From assembly GCA_946643435.1 (NCBI GenBank), contig CAMPCD010000001.1, positions 4,908-68,907 on the forward strand: a stretch of DNA of 64,000 bases. Reading direction: 5' to 3'. A program made the translations under genes and the position numbers. Of this stretch, positions 1 to 59,416 are shown one piece after another. The notes under the pieces were generated by a model. The model did no database searches and was not told where the DNA came from. It worked only from the letters and a program-made list of their open reading frames with translations. Position 1 is the first letter of the stretch; the number at the start of each line of letters is the position of its first letter. Source of the DNA: an uncultured bacterium (lineage in GTDB: Bacteria; Bacillota_I; Bacilli_A; RF39; UBA660).

Positions 1-2369
1 CAATAATTAGAATCATATATATCATTAGCTGAATTACTAGTAATTACATCAACGGTAACATCCTTACCGTATTCGCTTATTGCATCATAACTTGTATAAA
101 CAGGAAAATCAAAATAGTAATTTATCCAGTAAGGAGAAAAATATATAAGACCATTATCATATTTATAGTTTAATGTATAATCAAATGGATCATCACTAAA
201 ATCAAATGTGAATTTTATAGCTTGTTTATTTGTATTTTTGAAGTTGTTAATTATTTCAACAGTATAATGGTCCTGAACATACTGACTAAATTCTTCAGTA
301 TTTTTGAAGAATCTTCCAGATTGAGTTTTAACAACTTGAATCTTAGGCTTGTTACGCCCAGTCGGATCATTAATAGTTGGTAATTCAGTTCTAAATTCTA
401 AATCATCAAGACTTTCTATATAGGACCCTTCTGATAATAAAACATAGCCTACAAATCCAGGGTCATAATCGGATACTAATTGAATACCAAAGTTCATCTC
501 TACAGAATTTCTATATAAACCATTCGATATATTCTCAAAAATCTGCGTATATATACTTGGCCTATAATCTTGTTTGACATCAGTAATATCTGCAGACTCT
601 CTCATCCAATATCCTATCTCTCCATATTGTTCTTCATATTCTGTAAGATATGAATGCTCGGAACTACTAATTTTATAAAATGAACTTCTATATTCCGAAG
701 CAAATTCACCATTCTCGTATGCCGTAATATGTGGATAAAAATGAACTTGATCACCAACATTTATGTTGTCGCCATATAATTTGAATGAACTAGGTGCATT
801 TAAATAATTCATAGATTTATCAAAATTATGAATTATGAAATAGTAACCAACTACTCTCTTAGGAAAGTTTTTATAGAGTTTTCCTGTATTCTTAAACGAA
901 TCATATAATACGTAGTCCGTTTCATTCTGATACCTTACATATAAATCAACATCATAGCTTCCGTCAGGTATCGATTTTTTTGCTCCATTATAGAAAACAC
1001 CAGATAAATATCTACTGCCAGAATAGTTTCCTGGGAATGAAATCAACTCATAATTATATTCGTCATCATTTAACTTTCTGTAAGTAGAATCTTCTTTTTG
1101 TAAAATAGGAAAATCATATCCAACTTTAACATCTATTGTTCTATATTTATTATTAGTTACAAAGAATTCTGCATCTAGTGCATTAAGGTCATTTTCAGTA
1201 TTCATTATATTATGGTTATAAGTAATATGTTTTGAATTATCATATAAAGAAGCATTAACACTTATAGTTCCATCTATTTCATAATCAGATAGTTTTACAG
1301 TTTTCTCAAAAGTAAAAGCATCTTCATAATCATAACTATTATGATCATAACCAGCGTAATTATATATTCCACCAACAGTTACACTAAATGTGAAATCATC
1401 ATCATAAGTGTTTGGAACACCAATATAAACAGAAGAGAAGCATAATATAGGAGCAATAGACCCACTTAATGAGTCAACTTGTGGAAGTAAAACACTACAG
1501 AATACACTAGCCGACAAATACCCATTATGATTAGATAAAGATGAATCACTTCTTATTAAAACATCATCTGGAACATTAAATTTAAAACCACTGCTACCTA
1601 ATACTCTTGTTCCTTCACCATAAGAAAGACTAAAACTATATTTAAACCAAGTATAATCTCCCGAAGGAAGAGATTCATATGAGCTTGGTTTATATGCAGA
1701 TTGATAATCTAGGATTATTTCTTTTTTGTTAGAATTAAAATAAAAGTAAATTTCATTAGAAGTTTTGGTATTATTCAATTTAGCATAAAGATGTGATGCA
1801 ATATCTGGAAGTAAAGATGGTGCTGGTAATACATATGTAATTTGAACACTACCTTCAAAATTTTCGCTTGCAGGGATTGCATTATTATTAGTTAAAATTA
1901 TCTTTGATTTATCACTATTATATTTATATGACCACACATGTGTTTTAGTCGAACTATCAGATTTATCAGCACTGACAACTATAAACCTATCAATATAAGT
2001 GTCATATACTTTAGCCATATTAACATAGTTATAATACAAGTTATCTATTTCTATTTGTAAATCCCCTGCACCATAACTAGTAGATGTACCATTCTTTTTA
2101 TAATTTATTTGATATTTTAAAGTTTTTGATTCCTCATAATCAGTAGCAGTCCATTCGTATGAAGTTACTGAATTATTATTTTCATCAATTAAGATAGTAG
2201 ATATTTCCATATTTGATACATCTACTGATGCTAAATACACTCTTCGTACAGTTTCACTTATTGTTAAAGATATTTTATTAAAATTTAGCGTAAATAAAAA
2301 CAATAATGATATTCCTATCACCAATAAAACAAGCAATAGTTTTTTATTTACTTGTCTTTTGCTTTTCAT
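1..2369 (-). CDS. Large secreted or cell-surface protein with N-terminal signal-anchor; partial, C-terminus lies beyond the window start
   Basis: The minus-strand frame is open from the ATG at 2367-2369 (AGGAG 5 nt upstream) down to position 3. I hand-checked several 60-nt stretches and found no in-frame stop. N-terminus MKSKRQVNKKLLLVLLVIGISLLFLF. It is missing from the supplied ORF track, presumably because it has no stop inside the window. Confidence 0.7.
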   Translation of the reverse strand, partial: MKSKRQVNKKLLLVLLVIGISLLFLFTLNFNKISLTISETVRRVYLASVDVSNMEISTILIDENNNSVTSYEWTATDYEESKTLKYQINYKKNGTSTSYGAGDLQIEIDNLYYNYVNMAKVYDTYIDRFIVVSADKSDSSTKTHVWSYKYNSDKSKIILTNNNAIPASENFEGSVQITYVLPAPSLLPDIASHLYAKLNNTKTSNEIYFYFNSNKKEIILDYQSAYKPSSYESLPSGDYTWFKYSFSLSYGEGTRVLGSSGFKFNVPDDVLIRSDSSLSNHNGYLSASVFCSVLLPQVDSLSGSIAPILCFSSVYIGVPNTYDDDFTFSVTVGGIYNYAGYDHNSYDYEDAFTFEKTVKLSDYEIDGTISVNASLYDNSKHITYNHNIMNTENDLNALDAEFFVTNNKYRTIDVKVGYDFPILQKEDSTYRKLNDDEYNYELISFPGNYSGSRYLSGVFYNGAKKSIPDGSYDVDLYVRYQNETDYVLYDSFKNTGKLYKNFPKRVVGYYFIIHNFDKSMNYLNAPSSFKLYGDNINVGDQVHFYPHITAYENGEFASEYRSSFYKISSSEHSYLTEYEEQYGEIGYWMRESADITDVKQDYRPSIYTQIFENISNGLYRNSVEMNFGIQLVSDYDPGFVGYVLLSEGSYIESLDDLEFRTELPTINDPTGRNKPKIQVVKTQSGRFFKNTEEFSQYVQDHYTVEIINNFKNTNKQAIKFTFDFSDDPFDYTLNYKYDNGLIYFSPYWINYYFDFPVYTSYDAISEYGKDVTVDVITSNSANDIYDSNY

Positions 2370-3403: not shown

Positions 3404-5023
3404 TTAATTACTTAGTACTTCTAATATATTTGGTACCATTTGTTTCTTTCTTGAAACTACACCTTCAAGTAAATATCCTTGATGAATACTTTCAATACCA
3501 TATGCATTTTCTAATACTTTATTAGAGTTATCAGAATATATTAAATATGAATTGTTATTCATAAAGTCTGTTACATATAATGCACATACTTCAAGTCCAT
3601 TTCTTTCAGCTTCTTTATTTAATTCAGAAACAATTTCTTCCATTCTTGCTTCAAATTCACTAAAGTCTAATGTAAATACTTGAGATATAGATACCTTATG
3701 ATCATTTATTTCATATTGCTTACTATCTTTAAAGATAATATCTTCTGCAGATACACCTTCTATAGATACTCCTGATTGTAATAAATCTACACCATATTTA
3801 TAAATATCTACACCAGCTATCTTAGCTAAATCTTCTGCAACCATTTTATCCATTTCAGTAGTTGTTGGACTCTTTAAACATAATGTATCAGATAAAATAC
3901 CTGATAACATAATACCAGCAATATCCTTAGGTATTTCAACTTTATTATCTTTATATATTTGATAAATAATAGTATTAGTTGAACCAACAGCCATTGCTCT
4001 AATATTAATAGGTTCTGTAGTAATTAAATCACTTAAGTTATGATGATCTACTATTTCTACTATTTCAGCTTCATTTATACCATCAACAGATTGTCTTGGT
4101 GCATTATGATCAACTAAAATAATCTTCTTCTTATTAACCTTCTTAACATCTACAGTTCTTAACATACCTAAACAAGTATTATCATTTGTAATAATTGGAT
4201 AGTTAGTATGTTTTAACTTAGCTATTACATCTTCTGCATCTGATAAGTAATCATTAACATTAAATGTAGTACACTTTTCATTTCTTTGTATTGATTTAAT
4301 TGGATTAGCTAAACATAATACTCTTGCTACTTTAAATGATGATTTGTTAGATGAAATAATATTAATATTATTTTGAGCAGCTAACTTCATTTGTTCTTCA
4401 CTTAATTCTTTAGCATGTACCATGATAATTAATTTAACTCCAACCTTTAATGCATGTTCAATGATTTGTTTTCTATCACCAACAATTAAAATAGATTTAT
4501 TATCCAAATGAACATCTTTAATGAATGTTGCATCATCAAAAGTTGTAGCATGAGCATAACCTTCAATGTTATCATCTACTTTATAAAAACTTTTAGCATC
4601 AAGTACTTTTACTAAATTATCAAATGATGTATCAACATATAATGATTCATTATAAATCATATTAGCAGCTATCTCTTTTAAAGAAACATAACCTTTAAAC
4701 TTATTATTATCATCAACCAAAGGTACACCAGTTATACCATTGTCATGCATAAAATTAAATGTATCAATAATTGATGCGTTTTCATTAACCATGAAATTCT
4801 TACTAAAATTAACATCTTTAATTTGTAATTTAACATCGTTTAAATATTGCGGAACTTGTACTTTAAACTTCTTTAAAGCATATGCTGTTTCAGCAGTAAT
4901 TGCACCCAATATTCTTGGTTCAGCATGAACTCCAATTTCATGTTTAAAGTGTGCTAAACTAATTGCACTAGTAACAGAATCTGTATCTGGATTCTTATGT
5001 CCTACTATATAAATCTTATCCAT
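3404..5023 (-). CDS. ppaC: CBS-domain-containing family II (DHH/DHHA2) manganese-dependent inorganic pyrophosphatase
   Basis: N-terminal DHH motif GHKNPDTDS, later LVDHNAP and GILSDTL (DHHA2). A long CBS/DRTGG-like insert lies between the DHH motifs. 539 aa. Confidence 0.85.
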   Translation of the reverse strand: MDKIYIVGHKNPDTDSVTSAISLAHFKHEIGVHAEPRILGAITAETAYALKKFKVQVPQYLNDVKLQIKDVNFSKNFMVNENASIIDTFNFMHDNGITGVPLVDDNNKFKGYVSLKEIAANMIYNESLYVDTSFDNLVKVLDAKSFYKVDDNIEGYAHATTFDDATFIKDVHLDNKSILIVGDRKQIIEHALKVGVKLIIMVHAKELSEEQMKLAAQNNINIISSNKSSFKVARVLCLANPIKSIQRNEKCTTFNVNDYLSDAEDVIAKLKHTNYPIITNDNTCLGMLRTVDVKKVNKKKIILVDHNAPRQSVDGINEAEIVEIVDHHNLSDLITTEPINIRAMAVGSTNTIIYQIYKDNKVEIPKDIAGIMLSGILSDTLCLKSPTTTEMDKMVAEDLAKIAGVDIYKYGVDLLQSGVSIEGVSAEDIIFKDSKQYEINDHKVSISQVFTLDFSEFEARMEEIVSELNKEAERNGLEVCALYVTDFMNNNSYLIYSDNSNKVLENAYGIESIHQGYLLEGVVSRKKQMVPNILEVLSN

Positions 5024-5945: not shown

Positions 5946-7337
5946 ATGGCAAAAAGGAAAAAGAAAAAACTAAGATTGAAAAAAAGAATTACTTTGTTCT
6001 TAGTTATTACCGTATTAGTTATAACTGCTGCAGTACTTGCTGGTAATGAAATTAATAAGTTAATTATGGCTAGTAAGTTAAATGAAAAGCATTTAACTAT
6101 ATCATACGATAATATAGATGAAACTAAGTATAAAGTTAATATAACATATGATGATTTAGATGGTGTTGAATGTTCAATAGATAATAATGAATTTAAACCT
6201 ATGAATGAATGTACATTTGAATTACCTGTTGGTAAATATACTATTTATATCAAAAAAGATGAAAGTTTATTAAAGAAAGACTTCGAAGTTAAATCTAAAT
6301 ATGATGGATATTTTAGAACTACTTTAGATAATGTAGAAACATATTATTTAGCATTAGGAGGAAGTAAAGAATTAGAATTTACTTTCAATTATCCTGAAGG
6401 ATATGATACTACACGAACTTATGAAATAGATGATGATAGTATTATTAATATGGAAAAGGATACTATTAAAGGATTAAAGAATGGTACTACTACATTACAT
6501 GTTAAAATGAAAGATGGTTATACAAGAGATTATAATATCATGGTAACAGATATTATTAGTCCACCTACTTTAAATAATAATAAAGAGTATCTTCCATGTA
6601 TGAGATACAATCAAGAAGAAGCAGATTTATTAGATAAAATATTAGAGTCAAGAGTTCAAGAAGCTGGATATGGTACAAGAGGTGCTGTAGTAGCAGTAGC
6701 AAGATTCATTAATCTTGAATTCAAATATCAAATGAAATATTTCAATGAAAATGGTAGATTAAATGATCATGGTATTAGACCACATGTTGATGGTGAAGGT
6801 AGATTCTTCCATAAAGGAATGTATCTACAAACAGATAAATATTCAGTACTAGAAAAAGGTGCTAGTGATACAGGTCCTAAACCATGGGGATGTGAAATAT
6901 ATGATAGATTCATTTCAAGAATGAATAAAAATGGATTCGATTGTTCAGGATTTGTAACATGGGCAATGTATAACGGTGGATTCATTTATCATGATTCAGG
7001 TGCTGGTGAATTTAAACAATTTGATGATGACTTATCTGACTTAGGTCCACATCATGAAATAACAGATGAATATATGAAAAATGGACACTATCAAGTTGGA
7101 GACTTTATTGCAAGAGATGGACATGCTGCCTTAATAATTGGTATATCTGATGATACAATTTATACAGCTGAATCACTTCCACCTAAACTTAAAATATATA
7201 TCTATGGTAGATATACAGGAATAACTAAACATGGTGGAACTTGGAAGAGTTTAGTTAATGATGATAACTTAACTTATGTAGTTGAAATGGATGACATATA
7301 TCCTAATGGAGCTGGATGGTTCCATAATATGTGGTAA
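5946..7337 (+). CDS. Membrane-anchored NlpC/P60 (C40) cell-wall peptidase
   Basis: ATG at 5946 preceded by AAAAGGTGG. N-terminal TM anchor. Catalytic Cys context FDCSGFVTWAMY and His context ARDGHAALIIG. Confidence 0.8.
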   Translation: MAKRKKKKLRLKKRITLFLVITVLVITAAVLAGNEINKLIMASKLNEKHLTISYDNIDETKYKVNITYDDLDGVECSIDNNEFKPMNECTFELPVGKYTIYIKKDESLLKKDFEVKSKYDGYFRTTLDNVETYYLALGGSKELEFTFNYPEGYDTTRTYEIDDDSIINMEKDTIKGLKNGTTTLHVKMKDGYTRDYNIMVTDIISPPTLNNNKEYLPCMRYNQEEADLLDKILESRVQEAGYGTRGAVVAVARFINLEFKYQMKYFNENGRLNDHGIRPHVDGEGRFFHKGMYLQTDKYSVLEKGASDTGPKPWGCEIYDRFISRMNKNGFDCSGFVTWAMYNGGFIYHDSGAGEFKQFDDDLSDLGPHHEITDEYMKNGHYQVGDFIARDGHAALIIGISDDTIYTAESLPPKLKIYIYGRYTGITKHGGTWKSLVNDDNLTYVVEMDDIYPNGAGWFHNMW

Positions 7338-7339
7338 TT

Positions 7340-7372
7340 AAAAAAGATACTTATTTTAAAGTATCTTTTTTG
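7340..7372. terminator. Bidirectional intrinsic terminator between the convergent NlpC/P60 gene and uvrB
   Basis: AAAAAAGATACTT-ATTTT-AAGTATCTTTTTT, with an A-run and a T-run flanking the stem. Confidence 0.75.
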
Positions 7373-9328
7373 TTATTCAGATTTCATTTCGAAGATTAAA
7401 TCTCTTAATTCTGCTGCTTTCTCAAAGTCTAAGTTAGCTGCAGCTTGTTTCATTTCTTCTTCCATAACTGCAAGAATTTGTTCTTTATCTTGTTTAGTTA
7501 ATTTCTTATCTTCAAGTTTTTCCATTTCTTCATTTGTAACAACATCTTTAATCTTCTTAATAACTGTCTTAGGAACAATACCATGTTCTTTATTATATTG
7601 ATCTTGTATTTCTCTTCTTCTATTTGTTTCCTTAATTGATTGATCCATTGCTTCACTTACAGTGTCAGCATACATGATTACTTTACCTTCAGCATTTCTT
7701 GCACATCTACCAATAATTTGGATAAGTGATCTATAACTTCTTAAGAATCCTTGTTTATCAGCATCCATGATAGCAATCATTGATACTTCAGGTAAATCAA
7801 TACCTTCTCTTAATAAGTTAATACCTACAAGAACATCATATTTACCTTGTCTTAATTCTTTAATTATTTTTAATCTTTCTAATGTTTTAACTTCAGTATG
7901 TAAGTAAGCTACTTTTATACCTACACCTTTAAGGTAAGCAGTTAATTCTTCTGCCATTCTAATAGTTAATGTAGTGACTAATACTCTTTCATTTTTAGCT
8001 ATTCTTTCATTTATTTCACCAATCAAATCATCTATTTGACCTTCACTAGGTCTTACATCAATTAGTGGATCTAATAAACCTGTTGGTCTAATTAATTGTT
8101 CAACAGTTTTATTATTAACTAATTCTAATTCATAATCACCAGGTGTTGCAGATACATATATTACTTGATTTAATTTTTGTTCAAATTCATCAAACTTCAA
8201 TGGTCTATTATCTAATGCACTTGGTAATCTAAATCCATAGTCAACTAGAGTTTGCTTACGCATTCTATCCCCATTATACATACCTCTTACTTGAGGTAAT
8301 GTTATATGTGATTCATCAATAAATAATAAATAATCTTCAGGGAAGAAATCCATCAATGTCCCCGGAGTAGAACCTTCTTCTCTTAAAGCTAAATGTCTAG
8401 AATAGTTTTCTATACCATGACAGAAACCTGTTTCTCTAAGCATCTCTAAATCATAGTTACATCTTTGTTCTAGTCTTTCTGCTTCCAATAATTTATTATT
8501 ATCTCTTAATTCTTTTAATCTAGCATGTAATTCTTCTTCAATTCTATCACATGCTATATTTAATTTATCTTTATTAGTTACAAAGTGTGTTGCAGGGAAT
8601 ATCATAGTTGTTTTCTTTTGTTTAATAATATTACCTGTTAATACATCAAATTCACATATTCTATCTACTTCATCACCAAATAGTTCTATTCTTATTCCAT
8701 TTTTCTTTTCGGCTGCAGGAACAATATCAATAGTATCTCCTTTAGATCTAAAGGTACCACGATGAAAATCAATTTCATTTCTCTCATAGTTCATATCTAT
8801 TAATCTATATAAGATATCTTCTCTTTTCTTTATATCTCCAACTGATACTACTAAACATTCATTTTTATAATCTTCCTTATCACCTAAACCATATATACAT
8901 GATACGGATGCAACTACTATAGTATCTCTTCTTGTTAATAATGATTCAGTAGCAGAATGTCTTAGTTCATCTATTTCATCATTAATAGAGGCATCTTTTT
9001 CAATGTATGTATCAGAAGAAGGAACATATGCTTCAGGTTGATAATAATCATAGTAACTAACAAAATATTCTACTCTATTATTAGGAAATAATTCTTTCAT
9101 CTCAGCATATAATTGCCCGGCTAGAGTTTTATTAGGTTCTAATATTAAAGTTGGTCTGTTCTCTCTTGCTATAACATTTGCCATGGTAAAAGTTTTACCT
9201 GAACCTGTTACACCTAATAATACTTGATTCTTATTACCTGCATCTATAGACTTACATAACTCATCTATTGCTTTAGGTTGATCACCTGAAGGTTTAAATT
9301 CAGATATTAATTCAAACTTATTATCCAT
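7373..9328 (-). CDS. uvrB: Excinuclease ABC subunit B
   Basis: Walker [16 protein letters not shown], helicase motifs, and the C-terminal UVR domain [16 protein letters not shown]. Start set at MDNKFEL (GAGGTGA RBS) rather than the upstream in-frame ATG at 9358. Confidence 0.95.
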
Positions 9329-13800: not shown

Positions 13801-13861
13801 ATATAATCCCTCTATTCTATAAAAATTATAACAACACAATATAAAAAAGTAAATACAACCA

Positions 13862-13892
13862 CAAAAAAACTCTGGCCTGATAAACCAAAGTT
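13862..13892 (-). terminator. Intrinsic terminator of the 13862-14148 transcript
   Basis: Minus-strand ACTTTGG-TTTATCAGG-CCAGAGT (one G-U pair) followed by T7. Confidence 0.65.
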
Positions 13893-14148
13893 TTTTGAGT
13901 TTTTTAGTGAATAAACATAAATAATAATTATCAGTTACTATCCATATCTTGCAACTTTAAAATAGAGTATCTTTCTCTAATATGATCATATACTAAGTAA
14001 CAGTTACAACCTCTTGGCATTCTTCAATAGGATGAAACGAACTGAATTGAACTAAATCAAGACATCATTTACTTTCCTAACAAGATAAAATATAAAGTAA
14101 TTAATCATACTAATAAATTATCTTTTAAATAACATTTAACTTACTTAG
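13862..14148 (-). ncRNA. Candidate sRNA of about 285 nt (possibly 6S-like), class unknown
   Basis: Lies between a perfect consensus promoter and an intrinsic terminator, with no ORF carrying an RBS. A 12-bp long-range helix (ATACTAAGTAA near the 5' end with TTACTTAGTAT about 175 nt downstream) closes a domain of about 190 nt. Confidence 0.45.
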
Positions 14149-14155
14149 TATCTTC

Positions 14156-14184
14156 ATTATATACTTATATAACATCCTTGTCAA
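14156..14184 (-). promoter_or_regulatory. Perfect consensus sigma-A promoter (TTGACA-17 nt-TATAAT)
   Basis: -35 at 14179-14184 and -10 at 14156-14161 on the minus strand, counted base by base. It abuts the topB stop codon. Confidence 0.75.
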
Positions 14185-22690: not shown

Positions 22691-22883
22691 ATTATCACCT
22701 ATTAAAATTATAACATAAAAAAACTTATCATAATTGATAAGTTTGTCTTAAAAATAAAATATGCAGTAGGCACACTGCAATTAGATTATAACATTATAAT
22801 AATAAAAAATACAAGTATATTATAAGTAAAGTTCGTAAATAACAATTATAATATATGTTATAATCAACATAAGGAGTAATAAT

Positions 22884-23720
22884 ATGAACATTGAAGTTAA
22901 GAATTTAAACAAGAGTTTTGATGACTTCCAATTAAAGAATGTTAACATAGAAGTGCCTAAAGGAAAGATAGTTGGTCTTATTGGTGAAAATGGAGCTGGT
23001 AAAACTACACTTATTAAATGTATATTAGGTGCTATGTTTAAAGATTCAGGTGAAGTCAAGCTATTTAATAAAGAATATGATAATAGTTTAAAAGATGATA
23101 TAGGTGTTGTATATGATAATTCATTTATTATAGAAACATATAATATTAAAGATTTAAACTTAATCATGAAAAATATTTATAAGAATTGGGATCAAAAATT
23201 ATTCTTTAAATATATAGAAGAATACAATTTACCTTTGAAGAAAGAAATAAGAAAACTTTCTACTGGTATGAAAAAGAAATTAGAAATAATAACTGCTATA
23301 TGTCATCATCCAAAAGTATTAATACTAGATGAACCTACTTCAGGATTAGACCCAGTTATAAGATCAGAAGTATTAGATTTATTCCAAGACTTTGTAAATA
23401 ATAATGATAATTCAATTTTATTATCTACACATATAACATCTGATCTAGAACATATTGCTGATAATGTAATATTTATTTCTAAAGGTGAAATAATATTTGA
23501 TAAACCATTAAAAGAAATAAAAGATGATTATATAGTATTAGATGTAGATAAAGAAGAATTAAAAAATATAGCTAAAAAAGATATTATTAGATATAAAGAA
23601 AATAGGATAGATTACCAAGTATTAATTCATAAAAAGAATATGAAAACTAAATATGAAAAATATATAAAGAGAATAACAGCATTAGATGATATCATGCTTT
23701 TATATATAAGAGGTGTATAA
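22884..23720 (+). CDS. ABC transporter ATP-binding protein (ABC-2 subfamily)
   Basis: Walker A GENGAGKTT, signature LSTGMKKKLE, Walker B LILDEPTSGLD. Confidence 0.9.
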   Translation: MNIEVKNLNKSFDDFQLKNVNIEVPKGKIVGLIGENGAGKTTLIKCILGAMFKDSGEVKLFNKEYDNSLKDDIGVVYDNSFIIETYNIKDLNLIMKNIYKNWDQKLFFKYIEEYNLPLKKEIRKLSTGMKKKLEIITAICHHPKVLILDEPTSGLDPVIRSEVLDLFQDFVNNNDNSILLSTHITSDLEHIADNVIFISKGEIIFDKPLKEIKDDYIVLDVDKEELKNIAKKDIIRYKENRIDYQVLIHKKNMKTKYEKYIKRITALDDIMLLYIRGV

Positions 23721-24376
23721 TGAGAGGTCTAATAATTAAAGATTTACTTTTTATTAAAAGTACTTGGAAGAATCTAATAATATTATTTATAGGATCATTG
23801 TTAATAAGTGTAGCATTAGGTAATTATTTACTTGCTGTATGTTCACTACCTGTTATGTTATTATCATCAGGTATTAACACATTCCAAACTGATGAATTCT
23901 ATAATACTGAAAGTTATACATTAAGTTATCCACTTTCAAGAAAACAAATAGTATTAGCTAAATATTTATTTACAATTATATTATTATTAATATCTACATA
24001 TATAGGATTATTAATATACTGGTTAATAAGTGTAATAATACATCCTGGTTTCAATGGATTAAATACTGATATGTTAAAGTACTTCTTCATGACTGAAGCT
24101 GGTGCCTTAATAGTTGATTCATTTTTTTATCCAGTTATATATAAATTTGGATGTGAAAAATCAAGATTAGTATTAATGAGTATCGTAATGTTATTATTAG
24201 GAATTGGTTCTATACTATCTGTATATATCAACACTTCTAATATAACATTAGACTTAGCTGGAGGACTTAACTTTATCCAAACATATGGGTTACAAGTTCT
24301 AGGTATAACAGTAACACTATTCTTAATAATATCTTATATATTATCAATAGTATTTTATAAACATAAGGATTACTAA
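23720..24376 (+). CDS. ABC-2 type transporter permease
   Basis: 218 aa with six TM helices. The ATG overlaps the ATPase stop (ATAATGA). Confidence 0.7.
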   Translation: MRGLIIKDLLFIKSTWKNLIILFIGSLLISVALGNYLLAVCSLPVMLLSSGINTFQTDEFYNTESYTLSYPLSRKQIVLAKYLFTIILLLISTYIGLLIYWLISVIIHPGFNGLNTDMLKYFFMTEAGALIVDSFFYPVIYKFGCEKSRLVLMSIVMLLLGIGSILSVYINTSNITLDLAGGLNFIQTYGLQVLGITVTLFLIISYILSIVFYKHKDY

Positions 24377-24417
24377 TTCTTATGTTTTTTTATGTGTGTA
24401 AAATTTATTGTACACCC

Positions 24418-24433
24418 TTGTAAAATTTTACAA
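24418..24433. promoter_or_regulatory. Perfect 16-nt palindrome TTGTAAAATTTTACAA overlapping the promoter region
   Basis: Self-complementary sequence read directly. It overlaps an alternative -35 (TTTACA at 24427-24432). Confidence 0.4.
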
Positions 24434-24439
24434 ACCTAT

Positions 24440-24468
24440 ATGACAACAAATTATAAACATAGTATTAT
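24440..24468 (+). promoter_or_regulatory. Sigma-A type promoter (ATGACA-17 nt-TATTAT), with alternative TTTACA-18-TTATAA
   Basis: Hexamers at 24440-24445 and 24463-24468. No CDS follows on this strand. Confidence 0.5.
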
Positions 24469-24475
24469 AATAATA

Positions 24476-25030
24476 GATGGTAACAAAACTATTAAAATAT
24501 TAGAATATTCACGATAAAAGATCTCAATAACCGCTTTAACAGCTGATCTACTGAATATTATAAAGTTTGGATAGTAAAGTTAATATTTTGTTTGGAGTAG
24601 TTTCGTGAGTTTACAACATTGGATAACAGCAACGCCATCAAAGAAAATATAATAAAAAGTGAGTGTGAATGCACTGATGACCTGTAAGATTTATGTGATG
24701 TATAGTCATATGCGGAAATAATAGGTAATCGTAGGTATTCGTTGCTTATTATTTCACTAGCGTCATATACTTATAATCGCGATTATAAGTGCTAGGTTAT
24801 ATTCCAAAGTATAATGAATATGAAGACAATTTAATTTTTATTTAAGAAATAAACGAAAGTTTATAAGTGACTCATTCTTATGAGAAGAAAAGTTATTTAA
24901 GAGGTATTAATATGACAACCAAAAACCTTAAAATATTTCTTTTCCCCCCTTAAAAATCTTTTAATTTATTATATTAATATTTCTTAAATACTTAATTAAA
25001 AAAAAGATATCTTGAAGATATCTTTTTTCT
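24476..25030 (+). ncRNA. Candidate large structured RNA, copy 2 (about 555 nt, class unknown)
   Basis: 650-bp gap with no ORF of 60 aa or more, bounded by a promoter upstream and a bidirectional terminator downstream. It contains a 22-nt perfect hairpin (24769-24790). Conserved blocks are colinear with the minus-strand RNA at 2443-2947. Confidence 0.5.
24998..25030. terminator. Bidirectional intrinsic terminator
   Basis: A8-GATATCTT-GA-AGATATC-T6 between the candidate RNA (+) and the GT2 gene (-). Confidence 0.75.
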
Positions 25031-26035
25031 TTAGTTAAATTTAACAATTGAATGTGCAAATCTATAACCACCTATGACCATAGCTCTACCTAGTCTACCA
25101 GGTAAAGATGACCATCCAGCCATAGTTGTTAATTTGTGCATTTTTTTATAAATAATTGGATTCTTTTCTTTAATATCTGTCCAAATCTTTTTAAATTGTT
25201 CTTCTCCTTCTTTAGTCTTAGATAATCTTGAGAATACACATCCTAAAGAAATAATTAATGAACAATGTCTTAGCATAACTTTCTTATGTTTTTTATTTGT
25301 TATATCTTCTAAATCATAAGCTTGACCAACTAATGTTGATATTAAAGCTTGATGAGAACTTCTCTTTATTAATTGAGGTTCTTGAACAGATTGATCTTCT
25401 CTACCAATAAAATAATGATAGAAATCTAAATTCATATAATGAATTGTATTAACATATTTTAAAGCTAAATAGATAAATAAATTATCTTCATAGAATGTAT
25501 GTTTAGGTAATTTCATCTTAGCTTTTAAAATAGTTTCCTTCTTATACATCATTGAATGTAGAGTTAAATATTGTTGTACTTTAAATCTCTTAATATCATC
25601 CCAAGTACAATCAACATTATCTGGGAAGACGTTAGAATAATCTATTGTTTGATTCTTTCTTCCATCAGTATAAGTATATACATAATTCATGATTACAACA
25701 TCAGTATCAATCTTAGGTATTCTTTTTAATAAAGTTTTATAAGCTTTAGTATCTGCCCAGTCATCTGAATCTATAACTTTGATGTATCTACCTTCAGCCA
25801 TCTTTATTCCTTGATTAATACCTTCACCATGTCCACCATTTTCTTGATGTCTAACTTTAACAATCTTAGGATATTTCTTTTGATATTTATCTGCTATCTT
25901 TGCAGTATTATCTTTTGATCCATCATCTATAATTATTATTTCTATTTGTTCTCCACCAGGTAGTAAAGAATCTATACAATGTTCCATATAATCTTGTGAA
26001 TTATAACATGGTACAATGAATGAAATGTCTTTCAT
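25031..26035 (-). CDS. Family 2 glycosyltransferase
   Basis: SFIVPCYNSQDYMEHCIDSLL and IIIIDDGSKDNT motifs. Start at MKDISF (AGGTGA RBS). Confidence 0.85.
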   Translation of the reverse strand: MKDISFIVPCYNSQDYMEHCIDSLLPGGEQIEIIIIDDGSKDNTAKIADKYQKKYPKIVKVRHQENGGHGEGINQGIKMAEGRYIKVIDSDDWADTKAYKTLLKRIPKIDTDVVIMNYVYTYTDGRKNQTIDYSNVFPDNVDCTWDDIKRFKVQQYLTLHSMMYKKETILKAKMKLPKHTFYEDNLFIYLALKYVNTIHYMNLDFYHYFIGREDQSVQEPQLIKRSSHQALISTLVGQAYDLEDITNKKHKKVMLRHCSLIISLGCVFSRLSKTKEGEEQFKKIWTDIKEKNPIIYKKMHKLTTMAGWSSLPGRLGRAMVIGGYRFAHSIVKFN

Positions 26036-26101
26036 ATTTATCACCTAATTAATATTATAACATATTTAAATTAGACATGATATAATATAAGTGGTGATAA
26101 G

Positions 26102-50224: not shown

Positions 50225-50300
50225 TGGTGCCCCGGGAGGAATTCGAATCCTCGACCCACTGATTAAAAGTCAGTTGCTCTACCAGCTGAGCTACCGGAAC
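50225..50300 (-). tRNA. tRNA-Lys (anticodon UUU), CCA encoded
   Basis: Cloverleaf folded by hand. Anticodon loop CTTTTAA, T-loop GGATTCGAATCC context, 3' CCA. Confidence 0.9.
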
Positions 50301-50318
50301 ATATATAATTAAAAAGAA

Positions 50319-50394
50319 TGGTTGACCCGGATGGATTCGAACCATCGGAATGTCAGAGTCAAAGTCTGATGCCTTACCACTTGGCTACGGGTCA
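50319..50394 (-). tRNA. tRNA-Gln (anticodon UUG), CCA encoded
   Basis: Acceptor TGACCCG/CGGGTCA, anticodon loop CTTTGAC, T-arm GGTTCGAATCC. Confidence 0.9.
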
Positions 50395-50403
50395 ATAAAT
50401 AAG

Positions 50404-50487
50404 TGGTGGAGGGTCATGGATTCGGACCATGGAACCCGAAGGAACAGATTTACAGTCTGCCGCGTTTGACCACTTCGCTAACCCTCC
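50404..50487 (-). tRNA. tRNA-Tyr (anticodon GUA), long variable arm, CCA encoded
   Basis: Acceptor GGAGGGT/ACCCTCC, anticodon loop CTGTAAA. Confidence 0.9.
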
Positions 50488-50496
50488 ATAAAAAAA

Positions 50497-50572
<76 letters not shown>

Positions 50573-50580
50573 ACATATAA

Positions 50581-50657
50581 TGGTGGGCGATACAGGACTC
50601 GAACCTGTGACCCCCTGCTTGTAAGGCAGGTGCTCTAACCAACTGAGCTAATCGCCC
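50581..50657 (-). tRNA. tRNA-Val (anticodon UAC), CCA encoded
   Basis: GGGCGATTAGCTCAGTTGGTTAGAGC..., anticodon loop CTTACAA. Confidence 0.95.
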
Positions 50658-50678
50658 GACTTTAATAAAAAATATAAA

Positions 50679-50767
50679 TGGTGCCCGAGGCCGGACTTGA
50701 ACCGGCACGAGGGTTGAATCTCGCAGGATTTTAAGTCCTGTGCGTCTACCAATTCCGCCACTCGGGC
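50679..50767 (-). tRNA. tRNA-Leu (anticodon UAA), long variable arm, CCA encoded
   Basis: GCCCGAGTGGCGGAATTGGTAGACGC..., anticodon loop CTTAAAA. Confidence 0.95.
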
Positions 50768-53820: not shown

Positions 53821-53896
<76 letters not shown>

Positions 53897-53916
53897 ATAT
53901 TTTATTATAAAAAAAA

Positions 53917-53993
53917 TGGCGGTCCGTACGAGATTCGAACTCGTGATCTCCTGCGTGACAGGCAGGCGTCATAGGCCTCTAGACTAACGGACC
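53917..53993 (-). tRNA. tRNA-Asp (anticodon GUC), CCA encoded
   Basis: GGTCCGTTAGTCTAGAGG..., anticodon loop CTGTCAC. Confidence 0.95.
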
Positions 53994-53998
53994 ACAAA

Positions 53999-54075
53999 TG
54001 GTTGCGGGAGAAGGATTTGAACCGACGACCTCCGGGTTATGAGCCCGGCGAGCTACCAGACTGCTCTATCCCGCG
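53999..54075 (-). tRNA. Initiator tRNA-fMet (anticodon CAU), CCA encoded
   Basis: 5' CGCGGG with an unpaired C1-A72, and three G-C pairs closing the anticodon stem (GGGCTCATAACCC). Confidence 0.9.
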
Positions 54076-54092
54076 ATAACTAACAAATTAAA

Positions 54093-54185
54093 TGGCGCAG
54101 AAAGAGGGATTCGAACCCCCGCGCGAGTTGCCCCGCCTCCTGGTTTTCAAGACCAGTCCCTTCAACCGGACTTGGGTATTTCTGC
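54093..54185 (-). tRNA. tRNA-Ser (anticodon UGA), long variable arm, CCA encoded
   Basis: GCAGAAATACCCAAGTCCGGTTGAAGGG..., anticodon loop CTTGAAA. Confidence 0.9.
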
Positions 54186-54619: not shown

Positions 54620-54700
54620 AATTGCACCTCGTTAAGTATTATATCAAATTAACTTTACTTTGTATATAATTTTATTTATAATCTAAATTGGTGAAGAGAT

Positions 54701-54934
54701 ATGGATGAAAAAATTGAAATTATCAAAAATGTTTTAGATTCACTTAGACCATTTATACAATCAGATGGCGGAGATATAGAATTCGTAAAATATGAAGATG
54801 ATTATGTATATATAAAATTAACTGGTGCCTGTGTAGGCTGTTCATTTATAGATTACACATTAGAAGATAATGTATATGAAGCTATAAAAGAACAAATACC
54901 TGAGTGCAAAGGTGTATTAAATATAGACATTTAA
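54701..54934 (+). CDS. NifU C-terminal-domain (Nfu-type) Fe-S cluster scaffold/carrier protein
   Basis: LRPFIQSDGGDIEFV...LTGACVGCS motif, 77 aa. Confidence 0.85.
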   Translation: MDEKIEIIKNVLDSLRPFIQSDGGDIEFVKYEDDYVYIKLTGACVGCSFIDYTLEDNVYEAIKEQIPECKGVLNIDI

Positions 54935-54960
54935 AAACATCACTATATGTGATGCTTTTT

Positions 54961-59088: not shown

Positions 59089-59181
59089 TGAACATCACCT
59101 TATCATATATAATGTATTTTATCATATTATTGATTATTTTTATATATATGTTTATAATTTTTATTGAAAGGAAGATAATTC

Positions 59182-59406
59182 ATGGAAAAAGTAAGAGTAG
59201 ATTCAGATAGATGTATTAGATGTGGAGCATGTGTAGCTGTATCACCAGAAAACTTCGAATATGGAGACGATGGTGAATCAGTAGTAATTAATGAAGAAGT
59301 AAGTGAAGATACTAGACAAGCTGCTGATATGTGTCCTGTATATGCTATTGAAATAGTTAACGAAGAAGAAAACAATAATAAAGAAGAAGAAAAAGAAGCT
59401 GCATAA
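59182..59406 (+). CDS. Single-cluster 4Fe-4S/3Fe-4S ferredoxin
   Basis: CIRCGACVAVSP ... CPVYAI motifs, 74 aa, acidic Glu/Lys tail. Confidence 0.85.
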   Translation: MEKVRVDSDRCIRCGACVAVSPENFEYGDDGESVVINEEVSEDTRQAADMCPVYAIEIVNEEENNNKEEEKEAA

Positions 59407-59416
59407 GCTCCTTTTT

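Follow-up and report, generated by a model that had tools for sequence, protein, structure and literature searches.

In the 64,000-nucleotide stretch of contig CAMPCD010000001.1 analysed here (positions 4,908 to 68,907, hereafter the window), positions 24475–25030 of the plus strand most probably represent a genuine, new gene for a structured non-coding RNA of about 550 nt, a reading to which we assign a probability of roughly 0.85. Comparative analysis shows a strongly constrained multi-domain RNA with its own predicted promoter and terminator, which is linked to a Pmt-like ABC-2 exporter in a sample of loci anchored on the permease gene of that exporter. An initial annotation of the window had read this strand as the source of a structured RNA that stands alone and is about 555 nt long, and this proposal is supported by our analysis. 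The strings that it had listed (a palindrome, a promoter candidate, a hairpin, a terminator, a micro-ORF (open reading frame) and six short sequence blocks) were all found where it had placed them.

Relatives of the element were collected with the permease as anchor, using a scan of GTDB species genomes, a metagenome scan and ten exact-protein look-ups of homologues with 61–83% identity. The metagenome scan with the permease profile yielded six loci only, because its peptide patterns were unspecific. Altogether, 58 loci were obtained from metagenome-assembled genomes (MAGs) of uncultured ‘Bacilli’, ‘Erysipelotrichales’ and ‘Firmicutes’ and from gut and rumen assemblies, and the non-redundant set comprised 26 members (<96% identity). 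A profile hidden Markov model (HMM) of the gap gave one match per locus, always on the plus strand, in the window and in 46 of the 46 loci for which downstream DNA was present and permease identity amounted to 51% or more, while none of the ten loci with a permease identity of 38% or lower matched the gap profile. The conservation beyond this strain that the initial annotation had asked about was thereby borne out. The profile match begins a few bases past the permease stop codon or, in locus L012, after one inserted ORF. This additional ORF of 113 amino acids (L012 6665–7006) lies between the permease and the RNA gene, and both the promoter and the RNA body are intact at 7023–7674.

The gene downstream of the element differs between loci (GT2, a family-2 glycosyltransferase; Ham1p_like; DUF1307; unknown proteins of 168 and 179 amino acids) and is convergent in every one of them. 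Genes upstream of the ATPase gene vary as well, which leaves ATPase, permease and RNA element as the constant unit. Of the synteny suggested earlier, the association of ABC-2 operon and RNA thus held in 46 of 46 loci and the participation of GT2 did not. Together, these data describe an RNA family of uncultured gut and rumen Bacilli, probably of the RF39 clade. Plasmids, phages and IMG/VR viral contigs, searched with blastn and two family patterns, did not contain any match to the RNA, and a mobile-element origin was rejected on this basis.

Within the sub-clade of the window, the element is 79–84% identical, compared to 54–60% identity at four-fold degenerate sites of the permease gene and 67–86% amino-acid identity of the permease in the same comparison. 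These figures show a purifying selection on the predicted RNA that is stronger than that on the synonymous sites of the neighbouring permease gene.

Whole-alignment RNAalifold recovered just two helices as a consequence of alignment noise, which made a realignment of sub-domains necessary. The architecture given below was derived from this realignment combined with folds of the individual sequences.

24476–24639, plus strand: 5′ domain, closed by helix P1 (24476–24481 with 24634–24639)
24504–24511 with 24552–24559, plus strand: helix P2 with a variable insert hairpin (83% paired; five of eight pairs changed on both sides)
24565–24571 and 24590–24596, plus strand: two GUUUGGA motifs of the 5′ domain, followed by ACAAC at 24613–24617
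24662–24683, plus strand: helix H5 (24662–24666 with 24671–24675), then conserved ACUGAU(G/U)ACCU (24673–24683); an optional module together with ACUGAUUACCU
24717–24753, plus strand: helix H7, a 12-bp stem (24717–24728 with 24742–24753) plus 2 bp, with the loop UAGGUAUU (GCAGGAUGC in other clades)
24753–24824, plus strand: core with a three-way junction (RNAalifold, pair counts and covariance model R1)
24757–24760 and 24792–24795, plus strand: the two CUAG segments of the junction
24763–24768 with 24818–24823, plus strand: closing helix of the junction
24769–24790, plus strand: junction hairpin A, with UUCG-type tetraloops in many relatives
24796–24802 with 24809–24815, plus strand: junction hairpin B
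24850–24854 with 24859–24863, plus strand: helix H8, UAAAC-GAAA-GUUUA (82% paired)
24871–24875 with 24880–24884, plus strand: helix H9, CUCAU-UCUU-AUGAG (98% paired; three of five pairs changed on both sides)
24894–24913 with 24971–24990, plus strand: long helix of 20 bp including two G-U pairs, enclosing a C-rich segment, a small hairpin and the 13-codon micro-ORF (24912–24953)
24934–24949, plus strand: C-rich segment UAUUUCUUUUCCCCCC inside the long helix
24950–24955 with 24959–24964, plus strand: small hairpin inside the long helix

P1, which closes the 5′ end of the predicted transcript, is 81% paired in a sequence-only alignment and occurs in the compensatory variants GGUGGU/ACCACC, GGUAGU/ACUACC, GAUGG/CCAUC and GACGA/UCGUC. 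The first GUUUGGA motif is located in a hairpin loop in most clades. The stem of H5 covaries (GUGU/GCAC, GUAC/GUAC, GUGC/GCAC), and five lineages (L002, L009, L003, L047 and L055) lack H5 together with ACUGAUUACCU. The stem sequence of H7 changes from clade to clade and the AGG of its loop is kept. A role of this loop as a CsrA-type GGA decoy was considered and dropped because it reads AGGU and not GGA in the window's own clade.

The three-way junction was evaluated in 25 sequences of a MAFFT alignment with a structure supplied by the analyst, using 500 shuffled alignments and slid structures as controls. Of the cells, 91.3% were paired, compared to 74.9% after shuffling and 29–53% in the slid controls. 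Pairs changed on both sides amounted to 18 of 22 (shuffled, 11.5; slid, 7–11), and the covariation score was 0.421 (shuffled, 0.163; slid, 0.038–0.091). None of the 500 shuffles attained the observed value on any of the three measures. Covariance model R1 found the junction once per locus at the expected place, with scores of 41.7–83.8 bits and 73.8 bits for 24753–24824 in the window, and detected nothing else in the loci under E = 0.9. The closing helix changes from CACAU/AUGUG to CAUAU/AUAUG in the window, a compensatory replacement. The perfect 22-nt hairpin highlighted in the initial annotation is indeed present and is identical to hairpin A, a covarying arm of this junction.

The domain of the long helix cannot be aligned structurally by MAFFT and was judged by per-sequence folds and duplex z-scores. 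A helix of 12–22 bp is predicted in essentially every member, with a lineage-specific sequence (e.g. UUUAAGAGGUAUUAAUAU, UUUAAGUUUAUG, AAUACUUAUGUG, UAUGUUUGAGAUAUUUG, GCUAUUAGGAAUGAUC), and in most members its duplex energy lies well under that of dinucleotide shuffles (median z −3.1). By comparison, the sequence CAUUUCUUUCCCCCUAA enclosed by this helix is nearly invariant and has a predicted unpaired probability of 0.74 versus 0.38 for the whole RNA.

For a count over the whole element, the 88 pairs of 11 helices were placed on an L-INS-i alignment built from sequence only and not fitted to the structure. Paired cells made up 81.6% (shuffled, 71.9%; slid, 36–47%), 47 of the 88 pairs were changed on both sides (shuffled, 32; slid, 28–36), and the covariation score reached 0.30 (shuffled, 0.16; slid, 0.081–0.118); again, the observed values were attained in 0 of 500 shuffles. 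At least eleven helices of the element covary. In the paired columns, 135 G-U compared to 57 A-C combinations were counted. The minimum free energy was −110.9 kcal/mol for the plus strand and −100.7 kcal/mol for the minus strand, both with z-scores of about −3. The G-U excess, the better fold and the geometry of promoter and terminator described below indicate that the plus strand is the RNA strand.

One natural deletion variant (L011 6648–7197, identical to L041–L043 3163–3685) is without H7 and the whole three-way junction. It belongs to an abundant mouse-gut lineage, whose permease cluster was present on 38 contigs; its promoter, 5′ domain, long helix with C-run and terminator are all still in place. 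As judged from these comparisons, the predicted RNA is modular, with the 5′ domain and the C-run domain as the parts that are universally retained.

The conservation of the gap could also be explained by a decayed protein gene or by a gene for a small protein, encoded either in a 13-codon micro-ORF (24912–24953) or in a frame of 28–52 amino acids that starts from GTG 24867 (alignment column 637). The latter is open in five of the eight closest relatives and, in a shorter version (column 654), in a sixth, and the micro-ORF has an AAGAGG sequence 5′ of its ATG that resembles a ribosome binding site (RBS). However, the longer frame is closed in L001 and L034 of the same clade and absent from all other clades, and the ATG of the micro-ORF is replaced by ATA in L008 and L028, with no counterpart outside the close clade. 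No position-conserved ORF was found among the members, two of which (L007 and L045) do not contain any ORF of at least 25 amino acids on either strand. Moreover, the substitutions are compensatory in helices and not codon-periodic, and AAGAGG forms a strand of the 20-bp long helix. The earlier view that this apparent RBS is a conserved RNA block rather than a translation signal agrees with its pairing and with the lack of conservation of the ORF. We regard a protein-coding origin of the element, whether decayed or intact, as having next to no likelihood.

A further set of features concerns the transcription of the predicted RNA gene and of the operon in front of it.

24362–24391, plus strand: terminator-like hairpin of the ABC operon as read from the sequence (ACAUAAG / CUUAUGU and U-run), overlapping the permease stop codon
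24397–24414, plus strand: conserved upstream element TGTAAAATTTATTGTACA, a candidate regulator site (family consensus TGTAAAAyTTnnTGTmTA)
24418–24433, plus strand: perfect 16-nt palindrome TTGTAAAATTTTACAA of the initial annotation, near-perfect in eight close relatives only
24440–24468, plus strand: predicted sigma-70-type promoter with −35 ATGACA (24440–24445), 17-nt spacer and −10 TATTAT (24463–24468), from scan and conserved position
about 24998–25030, both strands: predicted bidirectional intrinsic terminator (A-run, 11-bp stem, U-run), common to the element and the convergent GT2 gene

ATGACA-17-TATTAT is the best promoter-like site of the region (10 of 12) and would set the start of the transcript at A24475 or G24476. 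In DNA as AT-rich as this, strings resembling a promoter turn up no less often than expected by chance, and the evidence therefore lies in their fixed geometry: in nearly all of the 26 members, a TAnnnT −10 element ends 5 nt before a conserved UAGG(U/A)GG and an (a/t)(a/t)GACA-like −35 element is positioned 17 nt upstream. Exceptions are L013, L003, L005, L016 and L030, of which the first three score best at 4 or 6 nt. Hence, of the promoter candidates named earlier, it is the second that is held at a fixed position throughout the family. At the other end, a stem with U-run terminates the element in essentially all relatives, with differing stem sequences and compensatory changes (RNAalifold). 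A consensus terminator scan did not call a terminator at about 24998–25030, which is due to the stem having fewer than three G-C pairs. The A8/T6-flanked bidirectional terminator of the initial annotation therefore stands as far as hairpin and U-run are concerned, in relatives too, and is weaker than had been stated. Between these signals, the predicted length of the RNA is 554 nt in the window and 394–594 nt (median 509) in relatives.

Upstream of the promoter, TGTAAA is fixed at −76/−77 relative to UAGG in nearly all of the 26 lineages. The window contains the TGTAAA..TGT element only once, and the region 5′ of the ABC operon is free of it apart from a weak match in L016/L017; given this single occurrence, the idea of a regulon was dropped. 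Three TGTA-type boxes (24397, 24409 and 24419) are spaced by 12 and 10 bp, about one helical turn, and are followed by an inverted TTTACA. The first two are found family-wide and the third is not, and the palindrome at 24418–24433, through which the initial annotation saw a possible control by a repressor, is likewise confined to the window's sub-clade. By its sequence, the series of boxes at 24397–24432 looks like a tandem site at which a DNA-binding protein, of the response-regulator type or another, could bind.

These signals also bear on the question of whether the element is a structured 3′ untranslated region (UTR) of the ABC-2 operon that serves stability or processing or gives rise to a small RNA (sRNA). 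The RNA lies on the permease strand directly 3′ of this gene, and 7 of the 26 lineages are without a T-run (≥5 T) between the permease stop codon and the TGTAAA motif, so that read-through is plausible there. On the other hand, such a T-run follows the stop codon in 19 of the 26 lineages, many of which also have a hairpin at this site, and the spacing between the −35/−10 pair and the nucleotide at which pairing begins is constant in almost every lineage. Furthermore, the 113-aa ORF of L012 is inserted between permease and RNA in such a way that the promoter and RNA unit stays whole. A 3′ UTR thus appears quite unlikely compared to an independently transcribed RNA.

Neither the candidate nor 11 divergent relatives gave a gathering-level match to any of the 4227 families of Rfam 15, and nothing recurred at E ≤ 10. 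ARAGORN detected no tRNA or tmRNA in the candidate. Membership in any Rfam family, including ROOL, GOLLD, HEARO, raiA, 6S, tmRNA, RNase P and riboswitches, was rejected in view of the missing covariance-model matches. A cis-regulatory leader or riboswitch was rejected as well because there is no co-oriented downstream gene; in all loci the gene that follows is convergent, and the element itself closes with a terminator, in agreement with the argument of the initial annotation that the convergent GT2 gene speaks against a 5′ leader. Full-text literature searches on RF39 and on the surroundings of ABC transporters did not reveal any matching RNA described as large, ornate or structured. On present evidence, the RNA represents a new family instead of belonging to a known one as member or variant, with unnamed catalogue candidates (e.g. 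the set in PMC8040213) lying outside the sequence comparison.

The initial annotation had treated the element as the second copy of an RNA at 2443–2947, based on a series of ordered blocks common to both. An Rfam scan of the window identified this first ‘copy’ as OLE RNA (RF01071; 2473–2959, minus strand; 201 bits compared to a gathering threshold of 50). A short ‘variant 2’ form of OLE is common in RF39, an uncultured gut clade with reduced genomes (PMC11332333), and the short OLE of the window is consistent with this type; the organism of the window probably falls within RF39 or close to it. Downstream of OLE and on its strand, an ORF begins near 2369 and extends past the edge of the window, with a length of 790 amino acids or more; this is not the size expected for OapA.

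A diverged OLE paralogue would account for the six strings of 7–8 nt that the candidate shares with 2443–2947, collinear on the minus strand of the latter, as well as for the similar size and the AT-rich composition within the same genome. The k-mer chain score of 148 between candidate and OLE also ranks second among 1217 genomic windows, which are mostly coding. Nevertheless, other family members reach chain scores of 71–152 (plus strand) and 70–166 (minus strand) against the same OLE, and five of the six common strings fall in lineage-specific positions or covarying helix strands. While the OLE model scores 201 bits at its own locus, Rfam covariance models run with permissive filters on 24300–25100 revealed at E ≤ 10 only chance or terminator-type matches and no OLE, and the 11 divergent relatives gave no OLE match at this threshold either. 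Conversely, the family HMM and covariance model R1 do not match the OLE locus at 2473–2959, and nhmmer with the OLE sequence found nothing in the loci. Seven OLE signature blocks (GUGGUGCA, CUAGUCA, CAAUGGCAUG, GGACUAAGUGG, GACCUAAGCCG and others), which the OLE of the window contains without exception, are missing from the plus strand in 26 out of 26 members. The neighbours of the candidate are the ABC-2 permease and a variable convergent gene, with no oapA-type neighbour, although the identity of OapA was not itself searched. The shared strings are therefore real, but to judge by these comparisons their resemblance lies within chance for AT-rich non-coding DNA. A paralogous relationship to OLE is very improbable, and we discarded it in light of the covariance-model, HMM, signature-block and k-mer-background tests. 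The supposed first copy is a known RNA and the second a new one that is unrelated to it.

Although unrelated in sequence, the candidate resembles OLE in its large size (about 500–600 nt) and its multi-domain, ‘ornate’ build. In both of these RNAs of anaerobic Bacillota, a scaffold of covarying helices carries single-stranded segments that do not vary, and the RNA has its own gene beside a membrane-protein gene; OLE also occurs in RF39. The candidate differs in having no sequence or covariance-model similarity, other helices and motifs and an ABC-2 exporter upstream, whereas OLE has oapA downstream; moreover, both coexist in one genome. With ROOL, GOLLD, HEARO and raiA the candidate has in common that these are long, conserved and structure-rich RNAs that comparative genomics brought to light, in many cases from metagenomes of rumen or gut. 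In contrast to them, it is not associated with phages or plasmids and is strictly syntenic with one transporter operon. Large (>400 nt), intricately folded orphan non-coding RNAs of bacteria are few (OLE, GOLLD, ROOL, HEARO and few others), and each of them became a research programme; the candidate would be a further one. The occurrence of the candidate and OLE in the same reduced genome implies that streamlined gut symbionts keep two large orphan RNAs.

The invariant genetic partner in the sampled loci, a two-gene ABC-2 exporter, gives a concrete functional hypothesis. The best NCBIfam match of the ATPase is PmtA-like (240 bits, under the cutoff of 350). Operons with a GntR gene (YtrA/PmtR), an ATPase and a permease contain a homologous pair of ATPase and PF13346 permease. 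As out-groups, we considered four two-gene PF13346 systems, which derive from a Tenericutes MAG, a Clostridia MAG, Christensenella and Paenibacillus.

L018 4758–6663: out-group GntR system
L019 4767–6627: out-group GntR system
L025 4745–6636: out-group GntR system
L027 4750–6627: out-group GntR system

In all four, a GntR gene of about 125 codons is located directly 5′ of the ATPase gene and only 27–65 bp follow the permease. The out-groups thus combine a GntR gene upstream with the absence of a 3′ RNA, and the RNA-bearing clade shows the opposite arrangement, as none of its loci contains such a GntR gene. The clade apparently lost the protein repressor that is usual for this exporter, which hints at a substitution of protein by RNA; the RNA may replace or compensate for that regulatory layer.

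The invariant unpaired segments (the two GUUUGGA motifs, the two CUAG motifs, the AGG loop and UUUCUUUCCCCC) on helices of variable sequence point to an RNA with specific tertiary or protein contacts, of the ribonucleoprotein (RNP) or tertiary-structure type, like OLE, ROOL or GOLLD, and not to a simple antisense or seed-pairing sRNA. The strict synteny with a membrane exporter suggests that the RNA acts with this exporter or regulates it. The RNA may do so at the membrane, and a factor binding the −77 element may control its transcription. Our best guess is a regulated RNP-type RNA that is functionally coupled to the exporter. We put forward an RNP or exporter-coupled function only tentatively, at clearly less than even odds. 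A more specific version, in which the RNA would be a membrane-associated RNP partner of the ABC-2 exporter that either takes over the sensing or regulatory role of the lost GntR protein or serves the transporter as one of its subunits or as its gate, perhaps with CUAG as an oligomerising element, is rather unlikely in this detailed form. ROOL, GOLLD and OLE form homo-oligomers (PMC12286853), and by analogy the palindromic CUAG segments of the candidate might mediate oligomerisation.

Alternatively, the RNA could be a trans-acting regulator that uses CAUUUCUUUCCCCCUAA to pair with Shine-Dalgarno (SD) and start regions of mRNAs, the remainder being a scaffold. Staphylococcal RNAIII and C-rich-loop sRNAs such as RsaE/RoxS have several UCCC loops, and Pmt is the exporter of the peptides linked to staphylococcal RNAIII. 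The candidate is reminiscent of these RNAs in its length of about 500 nt, an activator-type promoter of its own, many hairpins, an exposed C-rich segment and the theme of a Pmt-type exporter. It departs from them by the absence of homology and of a conserved peptide ORF, by its single C-rich site and by a stronger structural conservation. The near invariance and predicted accessibility of CAUUUCUUUCCCCCUAA would fit base pairing, as would its exact complementarity to UUAGGGGGAAAGAAAUG, which can be read as SD plus AUG, the independent and apparently regulated promoter with terminator, and the PmtA-like neighbour. However, no extended target with up to three mismatches and no target of the C-rich segment was found within the 64-kb window, where the best duplex with a start region was unremarkable. 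Nor was the RNA consistently complementary to the 5′ region of the ABC operon beside it (duplex z about 0, varying sites), and antisense control of this region was rejected accordingly. In addition, a seed-pairing sRNA would not need the ten other conserved elements of structure or the several loops that are invariant. We therefore consider a base-pairing regulator doubtful and prefer an RNP-type RNA coupled to the exporter.

Several points weigh against the interpretation of the element as an exporter-linked structured RNA gene. The shuffle controls keep the composition of the columns and leave phylogenetic signal in, and the structure was chosen after viewing the same sequences that were counted; more robust evidence comes from the slid controls and from how many independent pair types occur. 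The mouse-gut deletion variant implies that H7 and the junction core are not indispensable. We infer promoter, start site and terminator from conservation only, so that the transcript ends are predictions, and we infer the function from synteny and architecture alone. The constant position beside the exporter is partly built into the permease-anchored sampling, which means that the occurrence of the element elsewhere is not readable from the 46-locus count. Finally, the contrast in GntR genes comes from four out-group loci.

The genes that flank the element in the window are the following.

22884–24376, plus strand: two-gene ABC-2 exporter operon (Pfam ABC_tran and ABC2_membrane_5) with ATPase (22884–23720) and PF13346 permease (23720–24376)
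25031–26044, minus strand: convergent GT2 gene

The intergenic region between them (24377–25030) has a length of 654 bp, and its longest ORFs comprise 41 and 38 codons, in accordance with the earlier observation that no ORF of at least 60 amino acids is present. It ranks second in size among the 60 gaps that separate ORFs of 90 or more amino acids, which have a median of 44.5 bp and a 75th percentile of 87.5 bp. In front of the ABC operon (22691–22883 and equivalents in the other loci), no evident GntR-type operator or RNA-complementary site was detected. This region contains a strongly conserved TATAAT-type −10 element (…TGTTATAAT…) about 30–40 nt 5′ of an AGGAG RBS. Elsewhere in the window, which has a G+C content of 26.9%, three ORF-free gaps of 328–345 bp (13840–14184, 54620–54960 and 59089–59416) are without a gathering-level Rfam match. 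Ten tRNA genes are arranged in two clusters (50228–50767 and 53824–54185, minus strand), which account for the largest and the third-largest intergenic gaps.

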